From sequence record OL960581: a stretch of DNA of 64,000 nt, one strand, 5' to 3'. The DNA is from Escherichia phage vB_EcoM_SA20RB. The translations under genes were made by a program, and so were the position numbers. The notes under the pieces are model-generated. The model did no database searches. It saw only the letters and a list, made by a program, of their open reading frames with translations, and had not been told where the DNA came from. Below, piece by piece: positions 5,258 through 54,863 of this stretch (position 1 is its first letter; each line of letters starts with the position of its first letter).

Positions 5258-5270
5258 AATATTTCCTCAG

Positions 5271-5278
5271 TATAAATA
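5271..5278 (+). promoter_or_regulatory. late promoter TATAAATA for uvsW
   Basis: Exact TATAAATA about 30 nt upstream of the uvsW ATG. Confidence 0.6.
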
Positions 5279-5307
5279 TAGATATATTTATTACATGGTA
5301 TTTAGAC

Positions 5308-15695: not shown

Positions 15696-15725
15696 ACTAT
15701 AACACAACATGAGGGACTTGTAAAC
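15696..15725 (-). promoter_or_regulatory. T4-type early promoter
   Basis: Minus strand reads GTTTACA, 17 nt, TATAGT. Confidence 0.6.
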
Positions 15726-17785: not shown

Positions 17786-19882
17786 TTATCCTTGAACGAA
17801 CTTGTAAGGCATGTTTGCAATATCTATGCAAGATGCAATAATTCCAAGAGATGATTCTACTTTTTGTTTAACATTTGATGAAACAAATGATGCAAAGTCA
17901 ACTCTGTCTTCTATTTCAATATCACCTGTCATTGCAACTACTTCACCAGTTTCCATTAGACGGTCACCGTCATAAATTACTGATTCGGTGAGTTCTTCCG
18001 TAGTCATAACTTCAGCTTGAATGAGTTTTGTATTATTAGATGTTGTTCCGTCATTATTAGAAGCATCAGTTATTTTATTAACTTTGACCATCAATCCGCG
18101 TGGTAGAATTACTTCAGCTTCTGTTGCTATTCCTAGACTTCCTGGATATACAACATTAACTTTATGAGCTCCATCAATTGCCCATCCTATTTGAACTTTA
18201 ACGTATTCAGGATTTTCTTTATACGCTCTTATTTCGTTTGGATTAATAGTTATTCCTTCTTCATTTTTATCAACTGTCAATTCATTACGAGCTTCTGGTT
18301 CTAAAAGACCAATACCAGCATGTGTAATTCCAAAACGTCCAAAAATGATAGGAGTTAAAGAAGTAGATACAAAATTTCTGAAATAGAACACTTTATTTTT
18401 AACTAGTGCTTCGTATATAGGAGCAGTCATGCTTTGAGCACGATAAACTGTAATGCCTTCTGGTATACGATCACCATTTTCAAAAGCTGAATCTAAGTTA
18501 TTTATAGCAGATTCAATTTCTTTTTCACTCATTACATCATATCGTTCTGGATTGTAACGACCCAAAAGAAGATTATTGATGTCAGTATATCCTGAACCAC
18601 AATACTCTCTAATGCCGCGCTTTTGTGATGGAGTATATTTAGAACCATCACGGGCAATAGTAATATCAATCATTGGACCTGCACCAATTCCAGAAAAGCT
18701 ATAAATCATTCTTTTAAGGAATTTAGTTTTTGCTGCGTTCCAGGAATTTTTAGTTATTTCTTCCCAGACTTCATCTGGCTGCCCTTTACGAGTTTTATTA
18801 TGTTTATCAAGCCAATTATCTTTATATTCTTCAAAGAATTGATTAACAGCTGCTGCGTATTTCTCTAAACATTTTATTGAAGTAGTTGGTTCATTTTTAA
18901 TCGCATTAAGAATTACATCTTTAATTTTTTCAGAAACTTCATTAACCTCACTTTTTGAAAAGAATTTATAATCATAGTGAAGTTCATTTGCAGTTCCTTC
19001 AGCAATAATTTTTGCTGTCTTTGTTTTAGAAGCTAATGAATTAATTCCAAGCTTCATTTCTTCTGCTTCGGGAATTAAAGGAGCGGTAGCAGGTTTATTG
19101 AAATTAGCTGCGGTAGATTCATACTTCTGGAATAATTCACTTTCAAATCTAGAAGATTCTAATGATTGACTTTGCGCAATTGCTCTACGGGAAATTTTAA
19201 CTTTAACGATTACAGCTTGGTCAGAACGTTTATCATTTTCTTGCGCAATAGATGCAGCAATTGCCTCATTTTTAGTTACTTGAGCTCCAGTATCTTTATT
19301 GATATAAACATCACCAACCTTCGATTCAACTTTAGTAAAGAGCTCGGTACTAATTTCCGGAACTCCTGGAATGTCTTCTAGTGATACATTTTTGCGATGT
19401 ATAAGAATATATGCATACTTTTTATCGTAATCCCAAAGTTCCTTAAGAAGGACGTATCTGCCGCCTGAGCGACTACGGATAAGTCTATCAGCAATAAGTT
19501 GAATTTGACGAGCTTGACCAGCAGTTTTAGACTTAAGAATACGGAGCATGCAGGCATCAATTTTATACTGACGCATCGTCTGCATCGCAACAGTAAAAAC
19601 TGAATTGATGTAATTAATTGGGCTTGGACCGAGACCTTTTAATTTAGCAATTGAACCTTTAGCAGTTAATGTAAAAGGAACAATATGCATCATTTTATCG
19701 CCCATTTTTAAATCGCGATTAGTATCACCTCCAGATGTATAGGTACATAAACGAAAGCCTGGTTGTTCAATTGCGTCATCAACATGAACTGAAAAAATTT
19801 GCGGTATTTTCTTCTTTGGATTTAAGTTTGTAATCGGAAGAGTAGTATCTTCGTCAAATAATTCTGTAATGAGTTCCATCAT
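17786..19882 (-). CDS. alt: Alt ADP-ribosyltransferase (packaged head protein)
   Basis: 698-aa ORF (697 if the second Met is used); adjacent to gene 30 as in T4; late promoter upstream. Confidence 0.85.
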   Translation of the reverse strand: MMELITELFDEDTTLPITNLNPKKKIPQIFSVHVDDAIEQPGFRLCTYTSGGDTNRDLKMGDKMMHIVPFTLTAKGSIAKLKGLGPSPINYINSVFTVAMQTMRQYKIDACMLRILKSKTAGQARQIQLIADRLIRSRSGGRYVLLKELWDYDKKYAYILIHRKNVSLEDIPGVPEISTELFTKVESKVGDVYINKDTGAQVTKNEAIAASIAQENDKRSDQAVIVKVKISRRAIAQSQSLESSRFESELFQKYESTAANFNKPATAPLIPEAEEMKLGINSLASKTKTAKIIAEGTANELHYDYKFFSKSEVNEVSEKIKDVILNAIKNEPTTSIKCLEKYAAAVNQFFEEYKDNWLDKHNKTRKGQPDEVWEEITKNSWNAAKTKFLKRMIYSFSGIGAGPMIDITIARDGSKYTPSQKRGIREYCGSGYTDINNLLLGRYNPERYDVMSEKEIESAINNLDSAFENGDRIPEGITVYRAQSMTAPIYEALVKNKVFYFRNFVSTSLTPIIFGRFGITHAGIGLLEPEARNELTVDKNEEGITINPNEIRAYKENPEYVKVQIGWAIDGAHKVNVVYPGSLGIATEAEVILPRGLMVKVNKITDASNNDGTTSNNTKLIQAEVMTTEELTESVIYDGDRLMETGEVVAMTGDIEIEDRVDFASFVSSNVKQKVESSLGIIASCIDIANMPYKFVQG

Positions 19883-33122: not shown

Positions 33123-34292
33123 TTAAAAATATTTTTTAAAACTCATCATAACTTTATCATCAACATCATTATCAATCTGTGCTACAAGGTAAGATGACAG
33201 TTCTACTTCTTGTGGCGCGGATTGAACATTATCAGAATTAAGATATTCACGAATCCAAGGATACGGGTGTTTAACCGGAGCATCGGTAATTGGGCATGGA
33301 AGACCGCACTGTTTCATACGAGATACAGTTAAGTAATCAATAAAGCTCCACATGCTATTTGTATTTAATCCAGGAACATCACCATCTTTAAATAAATGAA
33401 CTGCCCAGTCTTTTTCTTGACGGTTAACTTCCATGAAAATATCAACTGCTTCTTGTTCACACTCTTGGGTGATTTTAACCCATTCATCACCATCAGTGCC
33501 AAGTTGAAGTTGACGAATAATATATTGGGTGCCTTTAAGGTGAAGCTGCTCATCACGTGCAATGAACTTCATAATCTTGGCATTACCTTCCATGATTTCC
33601 ATGTTCTTATGGAAGTTAAAGGTACATGCGAAAGATACATAAAAACGAATAGCTTCCAATGCGTTGATTACGTGCAGGCAGAGGTAAAGAGATTTCATTA
33701 GTGCTCGTTTAGTACATTCAACAACTTTGCCTAACTCTTCTTTACGAAATCCTTCTGATAAAATTCCTTCATAATCTTCAACCGCATTCTGATATTCACG
33801 AGTCTTAACTAGAACATCATCATAATAGCGACCGATAGATTCAGCACGTTTCATGATAGCTTCATCTAGTACAATCTCATCAAATACCTTCGATGGATCA
33901 GTATAAAGATTTCGCATGATATGAGTATATGAACGACTGTGAATAGTTTCACTAAAAGTCCATGTAGCAACCCATGTATCAAGACTTGGGTCTGAAATTA
34001 ATGACATAAGTACAGCAGACGGTGCACGACCCTGAATGCTATCTAGAAGTGATTGATACTTCAAGTTATTAGTAAAAATATCTTGCTGATACTGAGGAAG
34101 CTTGTTAAATTGTGCAGCATCCATCATCAAGTTTACTTCTTCAGGACGCCAGAAAAATGATAATTGCTTTTCGGTTAAATCTTCAAAAACTTTATGGCGT
34201 TGAATATCATAACGCGCAATACCAAGACCTGAACCGAAGAACATAGGTTCTTTTAAAACATCAACTGGATTTGTATTAAAAACTGTGCTCAT
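33123..34292 (-). CDS. nrdB: ribonucleotide reductase beta subunit (uninterrupted, no intron)
   Basis: 389 aa continuous ORF; T4 NrdB as recalled is 388 aa. Confidence 0.95.
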   Translation of the reverse strand: MSTVFNTNPVDVLKEPMFFGSGLGIARYDIQRHKVFEDLTEKQLSFFWRPEEVNLMMDAAQFNKLPQYQQDIFTNNLKYQSLLDSIQGRAPSAVLMSLISDPSLDTWVATWTFSETIHSRSYTHIMRNLYTDPSKVFDEIVLDEAIMKRAESIGRYYDDVLVKTREYQNAVEDYEGILSEGFRKEELGKVVECTKRALMKSLYLCLHVINALEAIRFYVSFACTFNFHKNMEIMEGNAKIMKFIARDEQLHLKGTQYIIRQLQLGTDGDEWVKITQECEQEAVDIFMEVNRQEKDWAVHLFKDGDVPGLNTNSMWSFIDYLTVSRMKQCGLPCPITDAPVKHPYPWIREYLNSDNVQSAPQEVELSSYLVAQIDNDVDDKVMMSFKKYF

Positions 34293-34343
34293 AAATTTTC
34301 CGCTTAGTTAATAGATAGTGACTCGTCCGTGAGTCAAATTATA

Positions 34344-36608
34344 TCATAATTTACAGGATGAACAATCTTCAGCTTTTGGAGTTTCTATTTCATAATCATC
34401 AGTACCAGAACCGTCGCGAGTATTATGATAATAGAAATTTTTTCCGCCAAAATACCAAAAGTACAAAAGGTCATCAATCATTATTGACATTGGAACCTTT
34501 CCTTTTGGAAAAATCTGCGGGTCATAATATGTATTCGCTGAAGCTGATTGACATACCCATTTCAGCATAATAGCTACCTGCGTAAGATAAGGTTTATTAC
34601 CTTTCTTAGCTAATTTCCATGTATAATCATATAGGTCTATGTTATGTTCAATATTGGGCACGACTTGATTAAAGGAACCCTCTTTTGATTCTTTAACAGA
34701 GACTGGTCCACGTGGAGGCTCGATACCGTTTGTACTGTTAGAAACTTGGGAAGATGACTCACATGGCATAAGTGCTGATAATGTGCTATTACGGATGCCA
34801 AAGAGCTTAAGGTCTTCCCGCAGCGACGACCAGTCACAAACGTATTTTGGAGCTGCGATTTGGTCAATCTTTTTATTGTACCAGTCGATAGGTAATTCGC
34901 CTCGAGACCAACGAGTGTCTGAATAATATTCGCAAGGTCCTTTTTCTTTGGCGAGCTTAATGGATGCTTTAATGAGTCCATACTGTAATCTCTCAAATAG
35001 TTCATGTGTTAAATCGTTAGCATCTTCATAAGAAGCAAAGTTACTTGCCAACCAAGCTGCATAGTTAGTAACACCTACACCAAGATTTCGACGCTTTTTA
35101 GCCTTTTCTGCTTCAGGAACTGGATATCCTTGGTAATCCAAAAGATTATCAAGAGCACGAACTTGGACTTCTGCTAATTCATTAATTTTATCTTGGTCTT
35201 GCCAATCGAAGTTATCTAACACAAATGCAGATAACGTGCACAATCCAATTTCAGCATCAGGACTATTCACATCATTTGTTGGAATAGCAATTTCACAGCA
35301 CAAGTTACTCTGACGAATAGGTGCCTTTTCACGAATAAATGGAGTATAGTTATTCGTATTATCAATGAACTGTACATAAATCCTTGCTGTTCCTGATCGT
35401 TCAGTCATGAGCAATTCAAACAGTTCACGGGCTTTAATACGCTTTTTGCGAATATTAGGGTCTTTTTCTGCGGCTTCATACAATTCACGGAAACGGTCTT
35501 GGTCTTTAAAATAAGAATAATAAAGCTCGCCACCCATTTCGTGTGGACTGAACAAAGTAATGTAGTCGTTCTTTCCGAATCGTTCCATCATCAAATCATT
35601 CAGTTGAACGCCATAATCCATATGACGGATACGGTTTTCTTCTACGCCTTTGTTATTTTTCAAAACGAGAAGATTTTCAACTTCCAAATGCCAAATAGGA
35701 TAATAAGCAGTAGCAGCGCCGCCACGAATTCCGCCTTGTGAACATGATTTAACAGCAGTCTGAAAATGTTTCCAAAAAGGAATAACGCCAGTATGACGCA
35801 CTTCACCTGTGCCAATCTTAGAACCTTCAGCACGAATCATACCAACGTTAATGCCAATTCCAGCTCGTTTAGAAATATACTCAACAATTGAAGCAGAAGC
35901 CTTATTGATAGACTTCAGCGAATCACCTGCTTCAATAACAACGCATGAACTAAACTGTCGAGTTGGAGTACGACAACCAGCCATAATAGGAGTTGGCAAT
36001 GAAATCTGTCGAGTAGATACTGCTTCATAAAAACGGATAACGTGTTTTAATCTATCAACAGGTTCATCTTGATGCAATGCCATTCCAATAGTCATAAATG
36101 CAAACTGTGGAGTTTCATAAATTTGACCAGTGGTTTTATCTTTAACTAGATATTTTTCTTTTAATTGCATCGCCCCGGAATAAGTAAATTCCATATCCCG
36201 CTCATGCTTAATTTTTGATTCTAAAAATGTAATTTCTTCGGCAGAATATTTTGACAACAATTCAGGGTCGTATTTACCTTCATTTACACAGTAAGAAATA
36301 TGATCAATAAATGAACGTGGTTCATACTGCCCATAAACATGCTTACGAAGAGCGAACATTAAACAGCGTGCAGCTACATATTGATAATCAGGCTCTTCAA
36401 CTGAAATAGAATTCGCAGCAGCCTTAATGACAATGGTTTGAATGTCATCAGTTGTCATTCCATCACGGAGATATGATTTAATATTTTCATATAATTCATA
36501 AGGATCTACAGATGTTCCTTCAGCTGCCCAAGATAAAACTTTAATAATTTTTTGCGGGTCAAAGCTCTGAGAAACACCACTACTTTTGATAACATTAATT
36601 AATTGCAT
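34344..36608 (-). CDS. nrdA: ribonucleotide reductase alpha subunit
   Basis: 754 aa as in T4. Confidence 0.95.
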   Translation of the reverse strand: MQLINVIKSSGVSQSFDPQKIIKVLSWAAEGTSVDPYELYENIKSYLRDGMTTDDIQTIVIKAAANSISVEEPDYQYVAARCLMFALRKHVYGQYEPRSFIDHISYCVNEGKYDPELLSKYSAEEITFLESKIKHERDMEFTYSGAMQLKEKYLVKDKTTGQIYETPQFAFMTIGMALHQDEPVDRLKHVIRFYEAVSTRQISLPTPIMAGCRTPTRQFSSCVVIEAGDSLKSINKASASIVEYISKRAGIGINVGMIRAEGSKIGTGEVRHTGVIPFWKHFQTAVKSCSQGGIRGGAATAYYPIWHLEVENLLVLKNNKGVEENRIRHMDYGVQLNDLMMERFGKNDYITLFSPHEMGGELYYSYFKDQDRFRELYEAAEKDPNIRKKRIKARELFELLMTERSGTARIYVQFIDNTNNYTPFIREKAPIRQSNLCCEIAIPTNDVNSPDAEIGLCTLSAFVLDNFDWQDQDKINELAEVQVRALDNLLDYQGYPVPEAEKAKKRRNLGVGVTNYAAWLASNFASYEDANDLTHELFERLQYGLIKASIKLAKEKGPCEYYSDTRWSRGELPIDWYNKKIDQIAAPKYVCDWSSLREDLKLFGIRNSTLSALMPCESSSQVSNSTNGIEPPRGPVSVKESKEGSFNQVVPNIEHNIDLYDYTWKLAKKGNKPYLTQVAIMLKWVCQSASANTYYDPQIFPKGKVPMSIMIDDLLYFWYFGGKNFYYHNTRDGSGTDDYEIETPKAEDCSSCKL

Positions 36609-37165: not shown

Positions 37166-38026
37166 TTACACCGCCATCTTTCCTTTCAAGACACCATGGG
37201 ACTGATAATCTTTGAGAACGAAATCTCGTGCTGTCATATATTCAGTTAACCAATACATTTGAGTTTCAGTATCGCATTGACTGAATCCATTAGGCCAATT
37301 AATACTAAGTTTGCATAGATCCATAGGAGTTCTATTTAATATCTCTTTGCATTGCTCAATATGGTTAGAATAAATGTGTGTATTACCACCCGAGAATACC
37401 AAATCGCCCGGAACTAGTTCACACATGTCAGCAACAATATGTAAAAGAGCAGCATAACTCGCGATGTTAAATGGAAGACCGAGGAAAACATCTACCGAAC
37501 GTTGATACCATTGTAGGTCAAGGTATCCGTTACGCACATTAAACTGATAGAACATATGACAAGGTGGTAATGCCATCTGCTTGAGTTCAGCTGGATTCCA
37601 TGCCGACACAATTTGACGTCTATCATTGGGAAATGTTTTAATACGATTAACAACTTCTACAATTTGATCTACACCACCAAAATCACGCCACTGTTTTCCG
37701 TAAATTGGACCAAGTTCACCGCTATGATAACCTAAGTCTTTGGCCTGGTTTTCGTAGTTTTCATCCCAAATTGTTTTTCCTGCAATTAAAGATCCATGAG
37801 TACGTTGACGTAAATCATTTACGTTAGTACTTCCTGATAAGAACCACAATAACTCAGAAATACATGCATTCCAGGCGAGCTTCTTAGTTGTTACTGCAGG
37901 AAAACCTTTAGTTAAATCCCAGCGTAATTTAGTACCGAACAAAGCAATTGTTCCTGTGCCTGTTCGGTCATCAGTTTCATAGCCGTTTTCAAAAATGTCT
38001 TTAATTAAATCTTGGTATTGTTTCAT
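37166..38026 (-). CDS. td: thymidylate synthase (uninterrupted, no group I intron)
   Basis: 286 aa continuous ORF, same length as the spliced T4 Td; catalytic motif PPCH. Confidence 0.95.
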   Translation of the reverse strand: MKQYQDLIKDIFENGYETDDRTGTGTIALFGTKLRWDLTKGFPAVTTKKLAWNACISELLWFLSGSTNVNDLRQRTHGSLIAGKTIWDENYENQAKDLGYHSGELGPIYGKQWRDFGGVDQIVEVVNRIKTFPNDRRQIVSAWNPAELKQMALPPCHMFYQFNVRNGYLDLQWYQRSVDVFLGLPFNIASYAALLHIVADMCELVPGDLVFSGGNTHIYSNHIEQCKEILNRTPMDLCKLSINWPNGFSQCDTETQMYWLTEYMTARDFVLKDYQSHGVLKGKMAV

Positions 38027-39810: not shown

Positions 39811-40187
39811 TACTTTTTGAAAGTTTTTCGCAAAAGTTCAATGATTTCATCTACATTGTTTTCGTCAACAATGCAATGAATTTTTGTTACGCCAGAAACC
39901 TTGTCTTCGACTTCATCTTCAGAAGTCGGTTCTTTATACTCACGAAAACAATGAAATTCATCTTCGCAAATTTCTAAAAGTCTATCTTTGAGATAAAAAT
40001 GCTTTCCATTTGCACATTCAATGTGTTTTACTGCTTTGTATCCATTGGCGACGGAAACTTCTTTAACTTCAAACCATCCGCCATTATCTCGAATAGCTTT
40101 AACTATTGATGAATTAGAACGTGGGCTATAATTAATAAATGTATCAATAAGTCTTGGAACAAGTTCATACTTTTTGCCAATATACAT
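39810..40187 (-). CDS. hypothetical protein
   Basis: 125-aa ORF. Confidence 0.6.
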   Translation of the reverse strand: MYIGKKYELVPRLIDTFINYSPRSNSSIVKAIRDNGGWFEVKEVSVANGYKAVKHIECANGKHFYLKDRLLEICEDEFHCFREYKEPTSEDEVEDKVSGVTKIHCIVDENNVDEIIELLRKTFKK

Positions 40188-40231
40188 TACGTTTTCCTCA
40201 TTTTAACGGGGCTGTAATAGCCCCCTGATAA

Positions 40232-40462
40232 TTATTGTTCAATCAATCCCATGTAAAATTCTGCGTCTTCAGAATCCATGCCGTCACAATACTCATTAGC
40301 CATAAAGCGGGTGAGGTCTTCAAGAGGACCTTCAATGACAATAGAAAAATTGCAATAATTGGGATCATCGTGAATACTTGTGATACTAAGTTCAGGATAA
40401 CGATTACGAATAATTTCTTCAATATATTCAAAATCAACGATGTCAATATCAACTTTAGCCAT
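40232..40462 (-). CDS. hypothetical acidic protein
   Basis: ORF track gives 40232..40483; the internal Met (MAKVDIDIV) is preceded by SD AAAGAGGAAA, so the shorter form is preferred. Confidence 0.5.
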
Positions 40463-40505
40463 ATTATTTTCCTCTTTAATCATCAGCAGTATTGCCGATA
40501 GTTGT

Positions 40506-40535
40506 ATAGTACCACGGAAGAACAGGGATGTAAAC
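40506..40535 (-). promoter_or_regulatory. T4-type early promoter
   Basis: Minus strand reads GTTTACA, 17 nt, TACTAT, with an AT-rich upstream element. Confidence 0.6.
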
Positions 40536-40551
40536 AGTTTTGTGAAAAAAT

Positions 40552-40585
40552 TTTTGAAATAAAAAAGGGGACCTCTAGGGTCCCC
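40552..40585 (-). terminator. terminator hairpin GGGGACC-TCTA-GGGTCCCC downstream of gene 32
   Basis: GC stem followed on the minus strand by TTTTTTATTTC. Confidence 0.7.
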
Positions 40586-40607
40586 AATTAATTAGTAATA
40601 TAATCTA

Positions 40608-41516
40608 TTAAAGGTCATTCAAAAGGTCATCCAGGTCCGTGTCATCAGCACTAGATGAACTGCCAGAGCTTGAGCTCATAAAATCATCTTCAGTTTTTGT
40701 TTTGAAGTCATCAACATTAAATGCATCCAAATCATCAGCAACTTTATCAGCTTTCTTAGCGGCAGTCGCTGCGGCACCACCCATAGCAGCAGTTCCCATA
40801 ACTTGACTGAACTTAGTGCTCAGTTCTTCAAACGATTTGAATTTATCTTTAGAAGTCATTTCAGAAAGGTCAACCATTTGTTCGAACAGTTCTTTCTGGA
40901 AAGATTCATCATCAATGTTTGGAATCGCAGATTGATTCAGGAATTTAGATTCGTCGTAGTTACTAAAACCAGAAACTTGTTTAACTTTCAGTACAAAGTT
41001 AGCACCTTCCCACGGACAAGTTACATCAACCGGAGTTTCACCCATTTCAACATCAACTGCAATCATTGCATTGATTTTATCCCAGATTTTCTTACCGAAA
41101 CGGTATTTAAATACTTTACCTTCATTTTCTGGAGCAGCTGGGTCTTTTACAACAAGAATGTTAGCCCAGTAAGAAGTTTTACGTTTAACAAGACCGTACT
41201 CTTTATTGTCAGTGTTATACAAATCATTTTTACTGATGTACTGACATACTGGACAAGAATCGTAATCACCGTAGGTAGATGAGCATGTTTCGATATACCA
41301 TTTACCATTTTTCTTGAAACCGTGATTTACAAGAAGTGCAAATGGTGCTTGTTCATCATTTTTAGACGGAAGAAAACGAATTACTGCTTGACCGTTACCC
41401 GCATTATCGAGTTTCAGTTTCCACTCGCCTTTATCTTCAGAAGAAAAACCACCTTTATTTCCAGCCAGTTTAGCCATTTGTGCAGCGAGTTCAGCAGTAG
41501 ATTTACGTTTAAACAT
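40608..41516 (-). CDS. 32: single-stranded DNA-binding protein gp32
   Basis: 302 aa (T4 301); sequence recognised, including the acidic C-terminal tail. Confidence 0.95.
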
Positions 41517-41553
41517 TTTTATTTCCTTTTTAATTTAATTTAATTTAATTAAC
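41517..41553 (-). promoter_or_regulatory. gene 32 translational operator (AT-rich repeated UUAAA region)
   Basis: Minus strand reads GTTAATTAAATTAAATTAAATTAAAAAGGAAATAAAA-ATG, matching the known gp32 autoregulatory binding region. Confidence 0.6.
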
Positions 41554-41576
41554 AGTTGGTGCTATGACACTTTACC

Positions 41577-42209
41577 TCATAGCTGGCATAATTCGCAATA
41601 CTCTGGGTCTTCGAGAGGTATCCAACCTGAGTTGAAATACTTTACCATCGATTTAGCAGTTGTATCAGTTATATTTATATTACCTTTAACTCTTCGCCAT
41701 CCAGGAGTTTTACCGTACAGATTAGAGGATAATAATAACACATAATTCTCGTAAGCAATATGAGATAATTTCCAAGACTCTATATTAGCTCGTGATGTTT
41801 TCCAAGGTCTAAAATCGTCACGGTTCATATAATTAGCCAATCTCATATGCTCTCTAACTTCCGGGTCTTTGGCTGGATGAGTTTCACCACTCACACCAAA
41901 TCCACCACCAGCATATACCAGATTAAAATAGTCTGGATTATCTCTGGCATTTACTTCAAGTTGGTATTTTCGTTCTGCTTCAATAACATCCAAGTCATCA
42001 TCAATTTGAATTATTTTAACGCTCGGTTTTTGAAGCATTAGCGCATTCAAAAATCTTTTTTGTTTACATGAGCTCCAGTATTCCTTTCCGGAAGAGTCAT
42101 ATATTATTCCGTTCTCAAATGAGCAATTTAATTTACTACCGATATAGTAGTATGGCGGAGTCTTATTTTTGACACGGTCTTCAAATGTAAACCAATATAC
42201 TATATTCAT
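41577..42209 (-). mobile_element. free-standing GIY-YIG homing-endonuclease-like gene between 32 and 59 (segG-like)
   Basis: 210-aa ORF; N-terminal GIY-YIG-like motif IVYWFTF...YYYIGSK; occupies the position of T4 segG. Confidence 0.7.
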
Positions 42210-42210
42210 A

Positions 42211-42864
42211 TTAATACTTGCAAGATTTCACAGTTTCAATGAAAACACTTTTGGCTTTCTGTGAATCAATATTTAAAATTTTTCTATAAGCTTTTAACTT
42301 TATAGAATAATTATTCCAGACTAAATTATCAGTCTGTTCATCATGTTTATCGATTATATTTAAAAACGAATCAAGCAAGATAAACGTCTCAAACGAAATT
42401 ATATTCGATTGAAGTAGTTTAAAAATATAACTTGATTGAACTTTTGGATTATATTCAAAAATTTCTTTAAAAGCAGAAACTTCAACTTTTTTACTAAAAT
42501 AATAAATGTTGCGAATATCTTCTTCAAACTTAAATTTAATTTGCTTTAAGCGTCCGATATATTCACGATAAAACACAAGTGCATCAGCGTCAGAGATGTC
42601 ACCAATCCAAGCATCTTGGTTAGCAACAAGATTGCTTATAAAGATTAAAGCAAGTTCCTTTAATTTATATTTTTCTGATAACTTCTGGAAAAAATACTTA
42701 TCCCTTCGCTTTTGATAAGCGGCATCAGACACCCGCATGCACCAATTATACTTAATTACATCATACTTTCCATTCATATGTTGTTTTATCATTAAGTATA
42801 ATTTATAAACTGATTTACCATCAATGTATCTTTCACCACCAGCAGGCATGCGGAGTTTAATCAT
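42211..42864 (-). CDS. 59: helicase loader gp59
   Basis: 217 aa as in T4. Confidence 0.9.
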   Translation of the reverse strand: MIKLRMPAGGERYIDGKSVYKLYLMIKQHMNGKYDVIKYNWCMRVSDAAYQKRRDKYFFQKLSEKYKLKELALIFISNLVANQDAWIGDISDADALVFYREYIGRLKQIKFKFEEDIRNIYYFSKKVEVSAFKEIFEYNPKVQSSYIFKLLQSNIISFETFILLDSFLNIIDKHDEQTDNLVWNNYSIKLKAYRKILNIDSQKAKSVFIETVKSCKY

Positions 42865-43199
42865 AGTAGAAAATCTAATGTATTAGTTTTTTCACAACGA
42901 ACAACAGAAGGACGTAAAAGATTTTCGTCGATAGCTTCTGACTGAATTTTTTCAATTATACCCGAAGGAATAAATTTAGCAAATTGAGTTTCAGGAATAG
43001 AATTTTCTTCTAAGAATGCTGTTGTAGCTTCAAGATAACTCATTCCAAACTCTTCTACCATTTTTTCAATAATAAATCCATTTTCTTGACGGTCAAGAAG
43101 CTTTGCTATTTCATCCTTTTCTTTCTTAATTGAAAGTTCTTTTTCTGAAAGACCGGTCTCATCGACCGGACGAATATCATTTAGAGAAAACTGTGTCAT
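42861..43199 (-). CDS. 33: late transcription co-activator gp33
   Basis: 112 aa from MTQFSLNDI (T4 length); the ORF track extends 3 codons upstream. Confidence 0.85.
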   Translation of the reverse strand: MTQFSLNDIRPVDETGLSEKELSIKKEKDEIAKLLDRQENGFIIEKMVEEFGMSYLEATTAFLEENSIPETQFAKFIPSGIIEKIQSEAIDENLLRPSVVRCEKTNTLDFLL

Positions 43200-43446
43200 A
43201 AAGTTCAACTACCTCTTCAGTTTCAGCTTCAAACACATCACGGTTATCTTTATGATACAAAGCTAATAGACGATTAAACATCTTACCATCAACGCCAAGT
43301 TCATCTTTGGCACGAATTCGAATATCTTTAATCAATTCATTATAACCAGAAATTTTCAGTTTATGGTCAGATGCTTCTTTAATAAATTTAGCTAAGTCTT
43401 CGCCATGGATAGCTTCATCAAATTCAACCATTTCTTTTTTAGCCAT
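43177..43446 (-). CDS. dsbA: dsDNA-binding protein DsbA
   Basis: 89 aa as in T4; position between rnh and 33. Confidence 0.8.
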   Translation of the reverse strand: MAKKEMVEFDEAIHGEDLAKFIKEASDHKLKISGYNELIKDIRIRAKDELGVDGKMFNRLLALYHKDNRDVFEAETEEVVELYDTVFSK

Positions 43447-43454
43447 TATTCACC

Positions 43455-44372
43455 TCAAAATTCATTAATGCTATTAGTTAATTTAGAAAGACCCGCTTTT
43501 ACAAAATATGAATAAATTTTGCCGCGCGGTGGTAATTTATATGAATTATAGTAATTCACAATGTTTGAAGCAATATTATCAGGAATATAATCAAAATCAA
43601 TTAGAACTAAATTTTCTTTATACCGATTATATTCAGATTCAGTGAGAAGCACCTTAGCTTGCTCACGGTCATTAGCAATAGCTTCAACAATAGAGGTTTT
43701 CATTGAAGGAGTTCGTTCACCTTCAACTCTGGTAAACCAAAAGTCAGATCGTACTTTAACTGAAGCAACGTTATCCTTTTTGTCACCTTTAAGGATTTTA
43801 GTCATACAGTCAATTTCAGCAGAACCGCTTTTAATTTTAACCCATTTCTTGTGCATCGGTGACCATTGCTTAACATTTGGGTATTTGTGAAGTTGAGTAA
43901 AGTCACCATCCGATGAAATGATTAAAATCTTATGTCCTTCTAAAGAGAACTTTTTAACAAGAACAGCAATATGGTCATCTGCTTCATACTTATCAATATC
44001 CATAACAATGTATGGCATATAAGCTTTCAATTCATCTATAACTTTATGACTGGATTCAAAATAACCTTCCCAGTCCCAAGTAGATTCTTCTCGTGCTTTT
44101 CCACGGTTTTTCTTATAATAATAAGCAAAATCACGACGCCAGTATCCAGATTTCGCGTTATCAATACACAGTACAATTTTAGTGTATCCAAGAGTTTTTG
44201 CTTTTTTGACATTAAACTTAATTGAGTTCAATATCAAATGACGAACCATTGATAAATTAATTTTTTCTTTATCTGGGAAGTTTACCAAAGCAGTTGAAAG
44301 CGCAATTTGACTAAAGTCAATTAAGCAGATTCCTTCTTTGTAATCTTCATCCAGCATCATTTCTAAATCCAT
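43455..44372 (-). CDS. rnh: RNase H (5-prime to 3-prime exonuclease, FEN family)
   Basis: 305 aa from MDLEMMLDE (T4 length); the ORF track extends 5 codons upstream. Confidence 0.9.
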   Translation of the reverse strand: MDLEMMLDEDYKEGICLIDFSQIALSTALVNFPDKEKINLSMVRHLILNSIKFNVKKAKTLGYTKIVLCIDNAKSGYWRRDFAYYYKKNRGKAREESTWDWEGYFESSHKVIDELKAYMPYIVMDIDKYEADDHIAVLVKKFSLEGHKILIISSDGDFTQLHKYPNVKQWSPMHKKWVKIKSGSAEIDCMTKILKGDKKDNVASVKVRSDFWFTRVEGERTPSMKTSIVEAIANDREQAKVLLTESEYNRYKENLVLIDFDYIPDNIASNIVNYYNSYKLPPRGKIYSYFVKAGLSKLTNSINEF

Positions 44373-44434
44373 ATGAACCTCGTTCAATTAGTGAGATTTC
44401 TATTATATACCATCCGAATCTTAAAGTAAACAAG

Positions 44435-44442
44435 TATAAATA
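44435..44442 (+). promoter_or_regulatory. late promoter TATAAATA for gene 34
   Basis: Exact TATAAATA 35 nt upstream of the gp34 ATG, in the divergent rnh/34 intergenic region. Confidence 0.65.
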
Positions 44443-44476
44443 CTTATTATTGAAAACACAATAGGAGCCCGGGAGA

Positions 44477-47400
44477 ATGGCCGAGATTAAAAGAAAGTTC
44501 AGAGCAGAAGACGGTCTGGACGCAGGTGGCGATAAAATAATCAACGTAGCTTTAGCTGATCGTACCGTAGGAACTGACGGTGTTAACGTTGATTACCTAA
44601 TTCAAGAAAACACAGTTCAACAATATGATCCAACTCGTGGATATTTAAAAGATTTTGTAATCATTTATGATAACCGCTTTTGGGCTGCTATAAATGATAT
44701 TCCAAAACCAGCAGGAACTTTTAATAGTGGACGCTGGAGAGCATTGCGTACTGATGCTAACTGGATTACAGTTTCATATGGTTCATATCAATTAAAATCC
44801 GGTGAAGCTATTTCGGTTAACACTGCAGCTGGTAATGATATTACGTTTACTTTACCATCTTCCCCAATTGACGGTGATACTATCGTTCTCCAAGATATTG
44901 GAGGAAAACCTGGAGTTAACCAAGTTTTAATTGTAGCTCCAGTGCAAAGTATTGTAAACTTCAGAGGTGAACAAGTACGTTCAGTACTAATGACTCATCC
45001 AAAGTCACAGCTAGTTTTAATTTTTAGTAATCGTCTGTGGCAAATGTATGTAGCTGATTATAGTAGAGAAGCTGTAGTTGTAACACCAGCGAATACTTAT
45101 CAAGCACAATCCAACGATTTTATCGTACGTAGATTTACTTCTGCTGCACCGATAAATATTAAACTTCCGAGATTTGCTAATCACGGCGATATTATTAATT
45201 TCGTCGATTTGGATAAATTAAACCCTCTTTATCATACAATTGTTACTACATATGATGAAACGACATCAGTACAAGAAGATGGAACTCATTCCATTGAAGG
45301 CCGTACATCGATTGACGGTTTCTTGATGTTTGATGATAATGAGAAATTATGGAGATTGTTTGACGGGGACAGTAAAGCACGTTTACGTATCATAACAACT
45401 AATTCAAACATTCGTCCAAATGAAGAAGTTATGGTATTTGGTGCGAATAATGGAACAACTCAAACGATTGAGCTTCAGCTTCCAACTAATATTTCTGTTG
45501 GTGATACTGTTAAAATTTCCATGAATTACATGAGAAAAGGACAAACGGTTAAAATCAAAGCTGCCGGTGAAGATAAAATTGCTTCTTCAGTTCAATTGCT
45601 GCAATTCCCAAAACGTTCAGAATATCCACCTGAAGCTGAATGGGTGACTGTCCAAGAATTAGTTTTTAACGGTGAAACTAATTATGTTCCAGTTTTACAA
45701 CTTGCTTATATAGAAGATTCTGATGGAAAATACTGGGTTGTACAGCAAAACGTTCCAACTGTAGAAAGAGTTGATTCTTTAAATGATTCTACTAGAGCAA
45801 GATTAGGCGTGATTGCTTTAGCTACACAAGCGCAAGCTAATGTCGATTTAGAAAATTCTCCGCAAAAAGAATTAGCAATTACTCCAGAAACATTAGCTAA
45901 CCGTACTGCTACAGAAACTCGTAGAGGTATCGCAAGAATAGCAACCACTGCTCAAGTAAATCAGAACACCACATTCTCTTTTGCTGATGATATTATCATC
46001 ACTCCTAAAAAGCTGAATGAAAGAACTGCTACAGAAACTCGTAGAGGTGTTGCTGAAATTGCTACGCAACAGGAAACTAATGCAGGTACTGATGATACTG
46101 CAATCATCACTCCTAAAAAGCTTCAAGCTCGTCAGGGTTCTGAATCATTATCTGGTATTGTAACCTTTGTATCTACCGCAGGAGCTACTCCAGCTTCTAG
46201 TCGTGAATTAAATGGTACAAACGTTTATAATAAAAACACTAATAATTTAGTTGTTTCGCCTAAAGCTCTGGATCAGTATAAAGCTACTCCAACACAGCAA
46301 GGTGCAGTAATTTTAGCAGTTGAAAGCGAAGTAATTGCTGGACAGAGTCAAGAAGGATGGGCAAATGCGGTTGTAACACCAGAAACGTTACATAAAAAGA
46401 CATCAACTGATGGAAGAATTGGTTTAATTGAAATTGCTACGCAAAGTGAAGTTAATACAGGAACTGATTATACTCGTGCAGTCACTCCTAAAACTTTAAA
46501 TGACCGTAAAGCAACTGAAAGTTTAAGTGGTATAGCTGAAATTGCTACGCAAGTTGAATTCGACGCAGGCGTCGACGATACTCGTATCTCTACACCATTA
46601 AAAATTAAAACTAGATTTAATAGTACTGATCGTACTTCTGTTGTTGCTCTATCTGGATTAGTTGAATCAGGAACTCTCTGGGACCATTATACCCTTAATA
46701 TTCTTGAAGCAAATGAGACACAGCGTGGTACACTTCGTGTAGCTACACAAGTTGAAGCTGCTGCAGGAACATTAGATAATGTTTTAATAACTCCTAAAAA
46801 GCTTTTAGGTACTAAATCTACCGAATCGCAGGAAGGTGTTATTAAAGTTGCAACTCAGTCTGAAACTGTAACTGGAACGTCAGCAAATACTGCTGTATCT
46901 CCAAAAAATTTAAAATGGATTGTACAGAGTGAACCTACTTGGGCAGCTACTACTGCGATAAGAGGCTTTGTTAAAACTTCATCTGGCTCAATTACATTCG
47001 TTGGTAATGATACAGCTGGTTCAACGCAGGACTTAGAGTTATATGAGAAAAATAGCTATGCAGTATCACCATATGAATTAAACCGTGTATTAGCAAATTA
47101 TTTGCCATTAAAAGCAAAAGCTGCTGACGCAAATTTATTGGATGGTCTAGATTCATCCCAGTTCATTCGTAGGGATATTGCACAGACTGTTAATGGTTCA
47201 CTAACCTTAACCCAACAAACGAATCTGAGTGCCCCTCTTGTATCATCTAGTACTGCTACGTTTGGCGGATCAGTTTCGGCAAACAGCACATTAACTATTT
47301 CTAATACTGGAACGGCAACTCGTCTGATTTTTGAGAAAGGACCTCAAACTGGAACTAACCCAGTACAGACGATGACTATCAGAGTTTGGGGAAATCAGTT

Positions 47401-50200: not shown

Positions 50201-53200
50201 ATGGCTACTTTAAAACAAATACAATTTAAAAGAAGCAAAACCGCAGGTGCACGTCCTGCTGCTTCAGTATTAGCCGAAGGTGAATTGGCTATAAACTTAA
50301 AAGATAGAACACTTTTTACTAAAGATGATTCAGGAAATATCATTGATTTAAGCATTTCCACTGGCGGTAATATCAGTGGAAATATCACTCAAACTGGTGA
50401 TTATTTACAAAATGGAACATATAATCTTAATGGAAACCAGTTTGTTTATGCAGGAAAATATATTGAATTTTTACCTAAAACTGCTGGTAATGGTGCTTGG
50501 GCAAACCAACATAAAAATAAAGCTCCTATCTTTACCGATTTGAGTTCAACTACTTCTACTTCAGAATACCATCCGCTAATTAAACAACGCTATAAAGATG
50601 GAACTTTTTCTGTTGGTACGTTAGTAAATGAAGGAAGTTTTAAAATTCAATATATCAATGAATCTGGTGATTCAAAATATTGGACTTTTAATCGAAACGG
50701 TAGTTTTATTGTAGATAATGGCAGTATTGAAGTCCGTGCAGGTAATATTTCGGCTTCAGGTAATATTAACTCGGCAACTGGATTTGTTTCTGCACCGCGC
50801 GTCAATACAAAAAATATTAACCTGAGTTCTAAAACCTTTATACCGAATAATGACACGGGTTATGACATTGTTTCTTTACCTACTTGGATTTATAATCCAC
50901 CAGCAGATGGTTCTGACCGTGATACAAACGGATTGAACTACATGCGTAAAATGCGGGCTTCAAATACTTCTAGCATTTTCCATGAAATAGTTGACTGTCG
51001 TTCGGGAAAGCCGCAAGAAATTTCTTGGTGGACCGGCGTAGGACCTTCGTCTTTCCAGTGGGCGTTTGATACCTCTGGACGTATTACCGCAGGTAAATCT
51101 ATTTCAGTAGGTCTTCCTGATAATGGTACAAATGGGCGTTATCCTTTAGAGTCTGCCATTTCCATTGGTATTGCAATTGGCGATAACGATACTGGTATTA
51201 AATGGGTCCGTGATGGCGTTTATGACCTGATGGCTAACGGTATTTCATCCGCTACCATTTTGAATAATGGTATTAATAGTACTAAAAAATTGATGGTTGG
51301 TTATAGCCGTGATTCCGGCTCTACTTGGGATTTCCCAAATAACAACCAGGCAATGTTTACTGCGCGTACCGATGTTGATGGTAATAATAACGGCGATGGT
51401 CAGACTCATATCGGTTATAGCAGCAATTCTAAAATGTATCACTATTTCCGTGGCACAGGTCGTATGTCTGTTAGCATGGGCGATGGACTTCTTGTTGAGC
51501 CAGGTATTTTAGATATTAAAACTGGGTCTAATAGAGTTGCTATTAGAGCAGATGGTACATTTGACTCAACCCAACGTATTTCAATGCGCACTGGGTTATT
51601 TTTATCAGGTGATGACAATACCAATGCTCTGTCATTTAAAGCGCCTACAGGTGTTGACGGGACAAAAACCATTAACTGGGATGCAGGTACTCGTAATGGT
51701 CAGAATAAAAATACTGTAACCATTAAAGCGTGGGGTAACTCATTTAACTCAAATCCGGGTAATAGAGAAACTGTATTCGAAGTTTCAGATTCACAAGGTT
51801 ATTATTTCTACGCTCAACGTACTAATCCTGCGCCAGGTCAAACAGTAGGTCCGGTTAACTTTAAATTTAACGGAACTGTCGAAACAGGCCATATCATAGG
51901 CCTTGGTAATATAAGTGCCTCTGGTACAGGTTCTTTTGGTGGCAATGTTACCATGTCTAATGGTTTGTTTGTTCAAGGTGGTTCTTCTATTACTGGACAG
52001 GTAAAAATTGGTGGAACAGCTGATGCATTAAGAATTTGGAATGCTGAATATGGTGCTATTTTCCGCCGTTCGGAAAGTAATCTTTATATTATCCCGACTC
52101 CTAAAGGTGCCGGAGAATCAGGCGGTATAAGTAATCTTAGACCATTGATAATAGAACTGAACACCGGCACAGTTAAAATGTCGCATGATGTTCATTTAGG
52201 AGATTCTGGATCTGGTACAGGATTATTACAAGTAAGTAATAGTCTTAAAACTATTAAAATGATATGTCCAGTAACTATTAATGAACGTAATGCAGCGCTT
52301 ACTTTAGATTCTCCTTCATCTTCTTCTGCTAATTATTTGCAGGGTTCTAAAGCTGGAACTAGATCGTGGTATGTTGGTCTTGGTGGTGCTGGAAATGATT
52401 TATCACTTTATAGCCAATCTTATGGACATGGTCTTGTTATAAGTGATAATTTCACGTCAATCACTAAACCTCTTAAAGTCGGAAATGCCCAACTAGGAAC
52501 TGACGGTAATATTACCAACGGTTCAGGAAACTTTGCCAACTTAAATACCACGTTAAATCGTAAAGTTAATTCTGGATTTATTACTTACGGTTCAACTGCT
52601 GGATGGTATAAGTTTGCAACAGTAACAATGCCACAATCTACTTCGACAGTCTTCTTTAAAATAGTTGGAGGTTCTGGATTTAATAGCGGATTATTCACCC
52701 AATGTAATATTGCTGAAATTGTTTTACGTACTAGTAATGAAAGACCTGCTGACTTAAATGCTGTATTATACACAAGAACATCTGGAATGTATAGCGCAGC
52801 ATTTAGAAATATTTCAGTTAACAATGTCTCTGGAAATACATATGACATTTATGTTTATGCTGGAACATATTGTAATCAACTAGTTTGTGAGTGGTCATGT
52901 ACCGAAAATGCTACTGTTAGTGTTATTGGTATTAACTCATCTACCCAATCACCGGTGGATGCTCTTCCAGATACAGCAGTCGATGGGCAAGTTGCTAATG
53001 TTCTTAATAATTTAGTTGATCGTGGCAAAGTTAAGCGCTTCGAAGCTGATTCTGAAATAGCTATTAATAATCAAACCGGTATTCGTATCAGAAGCAACAG
53101 CGATAAAACTGGTTCTGTTGCTACAATGCTACGAAATGATGGCGGTAGTTTTTATATTCTATTTACAGATAAAAATGCCACCGATGGCGCAGCAACCGTT

Positions 53201-54010
53201 AATGGTGATTGGAATAGTAAACGTCCTTTTGCAATTAACTTAACAACCGGCGAAGTGCTAATGAATAACGGCATAGCTGTTCGCAGCGCTGCTTTATTCT
53301 ATAATAGTATAAATGTCAAAGATAACGGTTCTATTAACTTTGATAAGTCTGGTGCTAACCCAAGAAATATGAGAATATTTCATGCTGGCGATGCTTCTCG
53401 TGGTAACCGTATTGAAATTGCAGATGAAACTAACTATATTGCTTACTTTGAAAAAGCTCCAGGTGGAGCTAACCGCTTTGTAGTAAATAATGCTACTGTA
53501 GCTGGTGTTAATCAAATGAATTCATTTGGTATTAACATCAATAACGCACTTGGTGGAAATAGTATAGCATTTGGTGATAATGATACTGGAATTAAACAAT
53601 CCGGCGACGGACTTCTTGATATTATTACTAACGCCGCACGCCGAATGAGATTCCAGACGGGTGACACTTATTCTGACATGAATATAAATGCCCCAAACGT
53701 TTATATTCGTTCTGATATTCGTTTGAAATCTAATTTCAGACCTATTGAAAATGCTCTTGAAAAGGTTGAACAGCTTGATGGTTTAATCTATGATAAAGCT
53801 GACTATATAGGTGGTGAAATTGTTCAGACTGAAGCGGGTATTGTGGCTCAAACACTGCAAGACGTTTTACCAGAAGCAGTTCGTGAAGTTGAAGACATTA
53901 AGGGTAATAAAATACTCACTGTTTCTTCTCAATCCCAGATTGCTCTTCTAGTTGAAGCTGTGAAAACACTTTCTTCTCGTGTAAAAGAACTTGAATCTAA
54001 ACTTATGTAA
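50201..54010 (+). CDS. 37: long tail fibre distal subunit gp37 (T2-type, with a C-terminal intramolecular chaperone domain)
   Basis: 1269 aa (T4 1026); C-terminal 99 aa starts with SDIRLKSNF, typical of auto-cleaving chaperone domains; a mid-region segment is homologous to gp34. Confidence 0.9.
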   Translation: MATLKQIQFKRSKTAGARPAASVLAEGELAINLKDRTLFTKDDSGNIIDLSISTGGNISGNITQTGDYLQNGTYNLNGNQFVYAGKYIEFLPKTAGNGAWANQHKNKAPIFTDLSSTTSTSEYHPLIKQRYKDGTFSVGTLVNEGSFKIQYINESGDSKYWTFNRNGSFIVDNGSIEVRAGNISASGNINSATGFVSAPRVNTKNINLSSKTFIPNNDTGYDIVSLPTWIYNPPADGSDRDTNGLNYMRKMRASNTSSIFHEIVDCRSGKPQEISWWTGVGPSSFQWAFDTSGRITAGKSISVGLPDNGTNGRYPLESAISIGIAIGDNDTGIKWVRDGVYDLMANGISSATILNNGINSTKKLMVGYSRDSGSTWDFPNNNQAMFTARTDVDGNNNGDGQTHIGYSSNSKMYHYFRGTGRMSVSMGDGLLVEPGILDIKTGSNRVAIRADGTFDSTQRISMRTGLFLSGDDNTNALSFKAPTGVDGTKTINWDAGTRNGQNKNTVTIKAWGNSFNSNPGNRETVFEVSDSQGYYFYAQRTNPAPGQTVGPVNFKFNGTVETGHIIGLGNISASGTGSFGGNVTMSNGLFVQGGSSITGQVKIGGTADALRIWNAEYGAIFRRSESNLYIIPTPKGAGESGGISNLRPLIIELNTGTVKMSHDVHLGDSGSGTGLLQVSNSLKTIKMICPVTINERNAALTLDSPSSSSANYLQGSKAGTRSWYVGLGGAGNDLSLYSQSYGHGLVISDNFTSITKPLKVGNAQLGTDGNITNGSGNFANLNTTLNRKVNSGFITYGSTAGWYKFATVTMPQSTSTVFFKIVGGSGFNSGLFTQCNIAEIVLRTSNERPADLNAVLYTRTSGMYSAAFRNISVNNVSGNTYDIYVYAGTYCNQLVCEWSCTENATVSVIGINSSTQSPVDALPDTAVDGQVANVLNNLVDRGKVKRFEADSEIAINNQTGIRIRSNSDKTGSVATMLRNDGGSFYILFTDKNATDGAATVNGDWNSKRPFAINLTTGEVLMNNGIAVRSAALFYNSINVKDNGSINFDKSGANPRNMRIFHAGDASRGNRIEIADETNYIAYFEKAPGGANRFVVNNATVAGVNQMNSFGININNALGGNSIAFGDNDTGIKQSGDGLLDIITNAARRMRFQTGDTYSDMNINAPNVYIRSDIRLKSNFRPIENALEKVEQLDGLIYDKADYIGGEIVQTEAGIVAQTLQDVLPEAVREVEDIKGNKILTVSSQSQIALLVEAVKTLSSRVKELESKLM
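53711..54007 (+). other. gp37 C-terminal intramolecular chaperone / autoproteolysis domain
   Basis: Motif SDIRLKSNFRPIENALEKVEQLDGLIYDK followed by a helical tail; this family is removed from mature fibres in T2-type phages. Confidence 0.7.
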
Positions 54011-54011
54011 A

Positions 54012-54029
54012 AGAGGGCTTCGGCCCTCT
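54012..54029 (+). other. RNA hairpin AGAGGGC-TTCG-GCCCTCT between genes 37 and 38
   Basis: 7-bp stem with UUCG loop immediately before the gene 38 SD AAGGA. Confidence 0.5.
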
Positions 54030-54040
54030 AAGGATTTTTA

Positions 54041-54832
54041 ATGGCAATTGTAGGTGTTCCTGGCTGGATTGGTGAATCTGCCGTAAATGAAACTGGACAA
54101 CGCTGGATGGATGCTGCGATGAAAGCAGTTCGTGTTTCAGTTCCTGGTTGGATGAGCTCAATGGCTGGACAATCTAAAGAAGTATATTACAGTATTGGTG
54201 CTAGCAATTCTTATAATAAAGACACACTAATAAATTGGATAAAAGCCCAAGGAAGTACTCCTGTTGTTATTACAATTACAGGCAATATCGTTTCTTCATC
54301 GACAGGTCAACCATGCTTAGATTTTCCTAGCTCATTAACTAATGCATACGTTACCTTAAATATTAATAGCGGGGTTCATGTATTAGGTCGGGGAGGAAAT
54401 GGCGGAAGTAACTCTGCCGGTGGAGCAGGCGGAACTGCAATAAATAACGGAATTGGAACTCGTTTAAGAATAAACAATAATGGTATTATCGGTGGTGGTG
54501 GTGGCGGGGGCGCTGGTGCTAGATATCATCCTTTCCCCCAAATGGATATGATATTTGGTGGCGGCGGCGGTCGTCCATTTGGTGCAGCAGGTGCAGCAGG
54601 CGGCGGCGCAGCGGCAGCATCTGCCGCTACAATTTCTGCTCCTGGTAAAGGCACTGTTTCTGGGGTTCACCATGGAGGAGATGGTGGAGATTTGGGGGCT
54701 GCGGGCAAATCTTCATATATTCAAGGTGGTACTGGAGGAACTGTTCACTCGGGTGGCGCAGCAGGTAAAGCTGTTACTGGTAATGCTCCAACTTGGACTA
54801 AAGTTGGTACAATATATGGTGCAAGAGTATAA
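54041..54832 (+). CDS. 38: tail fibre tip adhesin gp38 (T2-type, glycine-rich motifs)
   Basis: 263 aa (T4 gp38 chaperone is 183 aa; T2 adhesin about 262); C-terminal half has poly-Gly blocks (GGGGGGG, GGGGG, GGG) separating variable segments. Confidence 0.85.
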   Translation: MAIVGVPGWIGESAVNETGQRWMDAAMKAVRVSVPGWMSSMAGQSKEVYYSIGASNSYNKDTLINWIKAQGSTPVVITITGNIVSSSTGQPCLDFPSSLTNAYVTLNINSGVHVLGRGGNGGSNSAGGAGGTAINNGIGTRLRINNNGIIGGGGGGGAGARYHPFPQMDMIFGGGGGRPFGAAGAAGGGAAAASAATISAPGKGTVSGVHHGGDGGDLGAAGKSSYIQGGTGGTVHSGGAAGKAVTGNAPTWTKVGTIYGARV

Positions 54833-54863
54833 TTTTGAATAAATATCCTTAAAAGGAGGGTCT

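Follow-up and report, generated by a model that had tools for sequence, protein, structure and literature searches.

The segG homing endonuclease gene of Escherichia phage vB_EcoM_SA20RB is identical to that of T4 and ends within the gene 32 operator pseudoknot

SegG of phage T4 is listed as an active free-standing GIY-YIG enzyme encoded between genes 32 and 59, with gene 32 as its target (PMC2988022, Table 1), and is considered the cause of the marker exclusion that T2 gene 32 undergoes when T4 and T2 are crossed (PMC2330249). SegA and other GIY-YIG enzymes make double-strand cuts with 2-nt 3' overhangs (PMC2988022). The cut made by such free-standing endonucleases falls hundreds of bp away from the endonuclease gene, which can be copied only if resection extends into the homologous flank (PMC2988022). 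The middle and late promoters of gene 32 are situated within segG, and the segG/gene 32 transcripts are processed by RNase E (PMC2988022). The overlap between the 3' end of segG and the gene 32 pseudoknot has already been described, as has the role of the UUAAA repeats in the gene 32 operator (PMC535899).

The window analyzed here is a 64,000-nucleotide stretch of Escherichia phage vB_EcoM_SA20RB (sequence record OL960581), and the coordinates of the features discussed are collected in Table 1. An earlier note on this DNA, made from the letters alone, had pointed to a 210-aa ORF with an IVYWF...YYYIGSK signature, placed where T4 has segG, as the gene of a Seg-type GIY-YIG homing endonuclease. 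The ORF was found exactly where described, with an ATG start and its stop codon within the range, IVYWF at residues 3-7 and YYYIGSK at residues 20-26. Comparison with T4 SegG (NP_049855) revealed identity at 210/210 amino acids and 633/633 nucleotides, well past anything that chance would give, and the slot between genes 59 and 32 of T4 is annotated as SegG, "site-specific DNA endonuclease; GIY-YIG family", which confirmed the proposed placement. The product also matched PHROG 7504, "homing endonuclease", over its full length with an E value of 1e-133. The gene order in the window, rnh-dsbA-33-59-segG-32 with gene 34 beyond on the other strand, is the same as in T4, and a single T stands between the stop codon of gene 59 and the start codon of segG (TAA T ATG). 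When the region was searched by megablast against phage genomes, hundreds of Tequatrovirus records were matched. It is very probable that the ORF is segG, the free-standing T-even homing endonuclease gene, and that it causes intronless homing and marker exclusion. Its identity was already known; this is a characterized gene met in a new isolate, and there is nothing novel in the gene itself. A 64-aa ORF on the plus strand (41847..42041) lies antisense within segG and was assumed to be a by-product of the segG reading frame.

Table 1. Positions of segG, its neighbors and associated sequence features in the window
Feature	Position	Strand	Basis
segG, free-standing homing endonuclease gene, 210 aa plus stop	41577..42209	minus	identity to T4 SegG; PHROG 7504
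N-terminal nuclease domain, putative divergent GIY-YIG type, about residues 1-105	41895..42209	minus	
C-terminal helical domain, about residues 116-210, predicted DNA-binding/target-recognition module	41580..41864	minus	
segG-specific segment, 621 nt, replacing 32 nt TGCTTATTATAAATAGATTATAATTATCTCAC of the T2-type spacer	41589..42209	minus	junction comparison
Gene 59, helicase loader, upstream of segG	42211..42864	minus	Pfam T4_Gp59_N and T4_Gp59_C
Gene 32, ssDNA-binding protein, downstream of segG	40608..41516	minus	Pfam gp32, E 5e-66
Gene 32 codon 77, ACA (Thr), candidate SegG-resistance or target-site polymorphism	41286..41288	minus	segG association
Gene 32 translational-operator pseudoknot	41561..41588	minus	mapped coordinates and covariation
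Pseudoknot stem 1, UGCC:GGUA	41585-41588 with 41573-41576	minus	
Pseudoknot stem 2, GCUAUGA:UCAUAGC	41577-41583 with 41561-41567	minus	
Unstructured operator part: four UUAAA/AATTA repeats, Shine-Dalgarno, spacer to gene 32 ATG	41517..41560	minus	
AAUUA matching RNase E consensus RAUUW, candidate segG/gene 32 mRNA processing site	41589..41593	minus	sequence match
T4 late-promoter consensus TATAAATA, candidate gene 32 late promoter	41672..41679	minus	exact match
MotA-box-like TTGCTTA, candidate gene 32 middle promoter element	41752..41758	minus	within segG
Collinearity-gap sites relative to T4, other homing elements absent	33625-33628, 34292-34348, 37186-37478, 5257-5314		

The gene had been called optional, and its distribution agreed. 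A query with the segG sequence matched 141 phage records, of which 118 reach at least 99% identity, against about 498 records matched at 95% identity or more by a junction-spanning query, 140 of which span the insert; segG is carried by about 28% of close relatives. Among loci from IMG/VR that encode gp32 relatives, segG itself was present in 2 of 80, one of these copies being frameshifted. The 32-59 junction was then compared between nine segG-carrying and nine segG-less Tequatrovirus loci, as had been proposed earlier, and the insertion boundaries were fixed to the base. In T2 and seven of the other eight non-carriers, the empty site separating genes 59 and 32 is a 99-nt spacer, laid out as a T, then TGCTTATTATAAATAGATTATAATTATCTCAC, then the operator; the spacer of the non-carrier JEP6 measures 109 nt owing to two extra UUAAA repeats. 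On the left, the insertion begins one base past the gene 59 stop codon. On the right, homology picks up at TG(A)CCAGCTATGAGGT, so the last four codons of segG belong to the operator and occur in segG-less phages as well, in agreement with the chimera idea put forward previously (PMC535899). Presence of the gene is thus polymorphic at a single position flanked by conserved genes, and relatives that lack it have a clean empty site.

Several copies of the gene departed from the common form. In a metagenomic Tequatrovirus contig (L022, 918-1548) segG is frameshifted by a 1-nt insertion, and in phage PTE-Eco15 (1369-2010 of locus L012) it bears a 9-nt in-frame insertion. The T4 record OL964745 has two homing-endonuclease features annotated under the segG match, which may represent a split segG. 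Some segG copies are decaying or altered.

The earlier note had also held that the 3' end of the ORF overlaps the regulatory region of gene 32, and this overlap could be placed precisely. The final 12 nt of segG (41577..41588, TGC CAG CTA TGA), stop codon included, supply the 5' strand of stem 1 and that of stem 2 in the pseudoknot. A scan of 40500..43000 with Rfam at E values up to 1 returned nothing, and no Rfam model matches the gene 32 pseudoknot; for this reason a covariation test was run, using five divergent alleles, one of the window/T4 type, one of the T2 type, and three taken from T4-like phages at a greater distance. Standard pairs were found in 55/55 cells, that is, for 11 pairs in five alleles. 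Compensatory changes had occurred in 7 of the 11 pairs, a result reached by 0 of 500 shuffles, and pairing fell to 27-53% when the register was shifted. The pseudoknot allele co-segregated with segG in 22/22 genomes examined, and conversion of the region would therefore also exchange the operator variant. Directly 5' of the pseudoknot is the AAUUA sequence that matches the RNase E consensus; the processing position in T4 we take to be -71.

In the unstructured part of the operator the four UUAAA/AATTA repeats occupy 41531..41550. The copy number of this repeat varies among close relatives, with two in T2, three in T4, and four in both the window and JEP6, and could tune the autoregulation exerted by gp32.

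Candidate promoter elements for gene 32 were found further upstream, inside segG. The late-promoter consensus TATAAATA lies 156-163 nt upstream of the gene 32 ATG, although the window as a whole shows no enrichment of this motif by itself, and the TTGCTTA sequence might tentatively be taken for the middle promoter element. The 32-nt segment replaced in the T2-type spacer holds a MotA box TTGCTTA, 12 nt, TATAAT, and the late promoter TATAAATA. The presence of both motifs inside segG fits the statement that the promoters of gene 32 are located there (PMC2988022). A generic sigma-70 promoter scan found 10 candidates where 6.9 were expected in shuffles, which is no better than chance, and its output was set aside.

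Since the protein encoded here does not differ from T4 SegG, the mechanism of a GIY-YIG homing nuclease is the best explanation for this locus. The gene would be transcribed as part of a 59-segG-32 unit, and its product would carry a divergent GIY-YIG nuclease domain at the N-terminus, followed by a flexible linker and a helical DNA-binding domain. During mixed infection with a segG-less relative, the enzyme would make a double-strand break in gene 32 of that phage, at a site that lies a few hundred bp away from the empty 59/32 junction. After resection, the break would be repaired by recombination with the segG-carrying genome as the template, and the cut phage would thereby acquire the 5' part of gene 32, the operator, and in some cases segG as well, the outcome being intronless homing together with local marker exclusion. 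We infer that SegG is expressed and active in this phage. Marker exclusion had been ascribed to such genes in the earlier note and would be expected here, the identical T4 protein being reported to exclude T2 gene 32 markers (PMC2330249). The gene would in addition be anchored in its host, with its last four codons making up half of the operator pseudoknot and the gene 32 promoters lying inside it.

This anchoring raises the question of whether segG is kept mainly as a regulatory scaffold, one that would have captured the gene 32 promoters and part of the operator pseudoknot after inserting, so that gene 32 expression would suffer from its loss irrespective of any homing by the nuclease. The 12 nt shared with both pseudoknot stems speak for such a role, as do the late-promoter consensus and the MotA-box-like sequence within the ORF, both of which the T2-type spacer segment replaced by segG had contained; embedded promoters are moreover considered to favor retention (PMC2988022). 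A scaffold role would, however, add to homing and not replace it, since the identical T4 SegG is reported to be active and to exclude gene 32 markers (PMC2988022, PMC2330249). The segG ORF is also intact in nearly all of the 141 records, though a scaffold needs no open frame, and frameshifted copies such as that of L022 show that the frame can go while the DNA stays. We regard it as very improbable that segG is retained chiefly as a scaffold, and favor a homing endonuclease gene that is additionally anchored by the regulatory elements it contains.

We turned to the nuclease domain itself, for which two kinds of search had been proposed earlier. BLASTP of SegG against T4 I-TevI yielded a weak match (E 0.03 over 54 residues), whereas nothing was returned against SegA, SegD, SegE, or SegF, although these four detect one another with E values of 1e-6 to 1e-26. 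Among curated profiles, Pfam gave no family at all for the segG product, and no PF01541 match for it or for 25 close relatives, at E values up to 1, and NCBIfam gave no match for the segG product at E values up to 10; the GIY-YIG assignment was instead upheld by comparison of deep profiles, as described below. Searches of PDB sequences found no chain of a GIY-YIG catalytic domain, whether the query was the protein alone or a profile of 26 or 103 sequences. The sole PDB match of the deep profile was the I-TevI DNA-binding domain, reached via NUMOD-like repeats in the C-terminal regions of the family members.

When 1.84 billion cluster representatives were searched with the N-terminal domain, at least 504 relatives (clusters at 50% identity) were recovered. 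From these family representatives 103 were sampled, and 77 of them have NUMOD3 motifs, as homing endonucleases typically do. None of the 103 matched Pfam PF01541 at E values up to 0.01, while seven weakly matched Pfam PF19835, SegE_GIY-YIG. The 103-member profile was compared by HHalign with an alignment of I-TevI, SegA, SegD, SegE, and SegF, which gave a probability of 95.5% and an E value of 1.3e-8 over SegG residues 1-101, in a register that places IVY with GIY, YIG with YVG, and N96 with N90. The deeper alignment was needed for this result, as a shallow one reached 47%, which is no more than suggestive. In a Foldseek search I-TevI was ranked top but was not significant (E 1.3).

The predicted domain has the alpha/beta fold of GIY-YIG nucleases, and the conserved positions of the family are Y5, Y22, G24, K26, Y44, S47, E79, and N96, with I23 included in Y22-I23-G24. 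In the GIY-type strand, I3-V4-Y5, the tyrosine is present in 101/101 ungapped representatives and aligns with Y6 of I-TevI. In the YIG-type strand, Y22-I23-G24, Y22 and G24 are invariant in the 103 representatives and align with I-TevI Y17 and G19. E79 is found in 102/103 and N96 in 103/103; N96 aligns with N90 of I-TevI, and E79 comes within one residue of E75. K26, Y44, and S47 are almost invariant in the SegG-type family. Other hallmarks are missing. Y5 and Y22 are 17 residues apart, compared to 11 between Y6 and Y17 of I-TevI and to the 10-11 residues of the usual motif spacing, and the structure model has a short helix at residues 10-15 between the two strands. No counterpart of the catalytic arginine, R27 at the start of helix 1 in I-TevI, is conserved across the 103 representatives; the equivalent helix begins with R52 in 20/26 close relatives, but this residue is not conserved across the larger set. 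R12, present in 90/97 representatives, or K26, present in 101/103, may stand in for the canonical arginine.

The possibility that SegG is a site-specific nuclease of a separate fold or catalytic type, with an IVY...YIG likeness that arose by convergence, is hardly credible: searches of Pfam PF01541, NCBIfam, and PDB sequences without a catalytic-domain match even for family profiles, the unconserved canonical arginine, and the non-significant Foldseek result would suit it, but it is opposed by the HHalign match over the whole domain with GIY, YIG, and Asn in register, by the weak SegE_GIY-YIG matches of the seven relatives, and by the fact that SegF, an accepted GIY-YIG enzyme, is missed by Pfam too. 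By all appearances SegG is a divergent member of the GIY-YIG superfamily, one that misses the motif spacing, the arginine, and the curated profile.

The structure model has two domains, in which a low-confidence linker (residues about 101-115) precedes the C-terminal domain. This latter domain resembles DNA binders of the HTH type, and relatives carry swapped C-terminal modules, among them NUMOD3, NUMOD1, and I-TevI_DNA-bd. SegG would accordingly combine a nuclease domain with a separate domain for which DNA binding is predicted.

The target gene was also examined for variation that follows segG. Codon 77 of gene 32 is ACA in 11/11 segG-carrying loci, one of which has a frameshifted segG, and is AAT or AAC (Asn) in 7/11 segG-less loci. 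This was the strongest association in gene 32 among 79 variable columns tested, with a raw Fisher p of 0.004 from 22 genomes, the IMG/VR scan for gp32 having given four close relatives only. In T2 the codon lies 99 + 230 = ~330 bp from the gene 59 stop. Liu et al. (J Mol Biol 334:13, 2003) reportedly placed the SegG cut 332 bp from the insertion site. The codon adjoins a zinc-binding cysteine codon of gp32. The variant may mark the SegG target or a resistance site, and is put forward as a candidate and not as a result.

The window and T4 are about 92-97% identical in most collinear blocks over the 64 kb, and less so in a few. Base-by-base alignment to T4 of 40165..44668 (~4.5 kb) gave 144 differing columns, indel columns included, among which gene 32 accounts for 45 in 909 nt and gene 59 for 11 in 654 nt. 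A tract of 678 nt (41534..42211) has zero differences from T4, where about nine would be expected at the lower of the flank rates. With this identical tract set between diverged flanks, the phage carries segG in its T4 haplotype between flanks of other history, and such a mosaic would be consistent with an element that moves by gene conversion. Horizontal spread is favored by the identity of segG to T4 amid flank differences of 2-5% and by the near identity of 118 of the 141 copies. Against it, the diversity of segG in nine deliberately spread carriers was 0.0165, about that of gene 59 (0.017) and somewhat lower than that of gene 32 (0.027). The proposition that segG varies much less than its flanks in carriers as a whole found no support in this nine-genome sample, and segG is itself mosaic in some phages. 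The gene is of some use as a marker of recombination history, with a T4-identical segG joined here to a gene 32 whose 5' end has another haplotype, in a phage that lacks the other T4 homing elements expected in this interval.

Other regions of the window were compared with T4 as well. Besides segG, four homing endonuclease genes of T4 would be expected in this interval, namely segE, I-TevIII with the nrdB intron, mobE, and I-TevI with the td intron. Collinearity gaps relative to T4 and tblastn showed all four to be absent, and only segG is present. The window has two tandem full-length paralogues of Alt-like ADP-ribosyltransferases, of 685 and 698 aa (15725-17782 and 17786-19882, minus strand), and T4 has at this position a single alt gene with the short remnants alt.-1, alt.-2, and alt.-3. 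The distal tail-fiber region (genes 37/38, 50347-54839) had no nucleotide match to T4, which suggests an adhesin module and a host range unlike those of T4.

SegG homologues with 64%, 59%, and 39% identity were found in more distant T4-like phages, all of them between genes 59 and 32. SegG-family genes in this identity range (39-64%) occupy the 59/32 junction in L104 (3001-3633), L105 (3001-3663), L101, and L102. The variant in L105 has a different C-terminal domain of the zinc-finger type; the host phages of this variant and of the 39% homologue in L104 have the same layout of neighboring genes and the same product lengths, and the two nucleases differ in their C-terminal domains. The L105 nuclease gene stops 3 nt short of the gene 32 start codon, and any gene 32 operator would therefore lie within coding sequence. 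In a T4-like metagenomic contig (L106, 2044-4703), a 292-aa relative with a SegG-type N-terminal domain interrupts uvsX. It stands between the RecA_N and UvsX_C parts, and the upstream part has a faint match to a Hint domain.

For the window itself these results have little import beyond the correct annotation of a textbook selfish element. What they add are incremental leads on how such nucleases choose sites and are retained, namely a Pfam blind spot, an altered catalytic set, a shared landing site, and codon 77. Joined together, they would describe the SegG type as a large GIY-YIG branch that is missed by present domain libraries and has an altered catalytic set, the 59/32 junction as a long-lived landing site in several T4-like lineages that has also taken up variants with swapped DNA-binding domains, and ACA in the two-base ACA/AAY difference at codon 77 as the allele that protects segG carriers from SegG; we advance this combination tentatively, and judge its chances to be somewhat below even.

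The closest known system is T4 SegG (gene 32.1), with which the window copy shares its protein, its DNA, its position between genes 59 and 32, and the overlap of its 3' end with the pseudoknot. Only the context differs, in that the flanks diverge by about 2-5%, the operator has one extra UUAAA repeat, and gp32 has 302 residues compared to 301 in T4. I-TevI, in contrast, is encoded by an intron (the T4 td intron), whereas SegG is free-standing. Relative to I-TevI, SegG has a longer GIY-YIG spacing with an inserted helix and hairpin, no R27 equivalent, and another C-terminal domain, and the distance between cleavage and insertion is reported as hundreds of bp for SegG and about 25 bp for I-TevI (PMC2988022). 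SegA, SegD, SegE, and SegF resemble SegG in being free-standing, optional genes located between conserved T-even genes and in intronless homing, and they share with it a Y-x-G/S-S motif after the YIG strand. These four are mutually related by BLASTP, and SegG stands apart from them in a subfamily of its own with at least 504 clusters at 50% identity.
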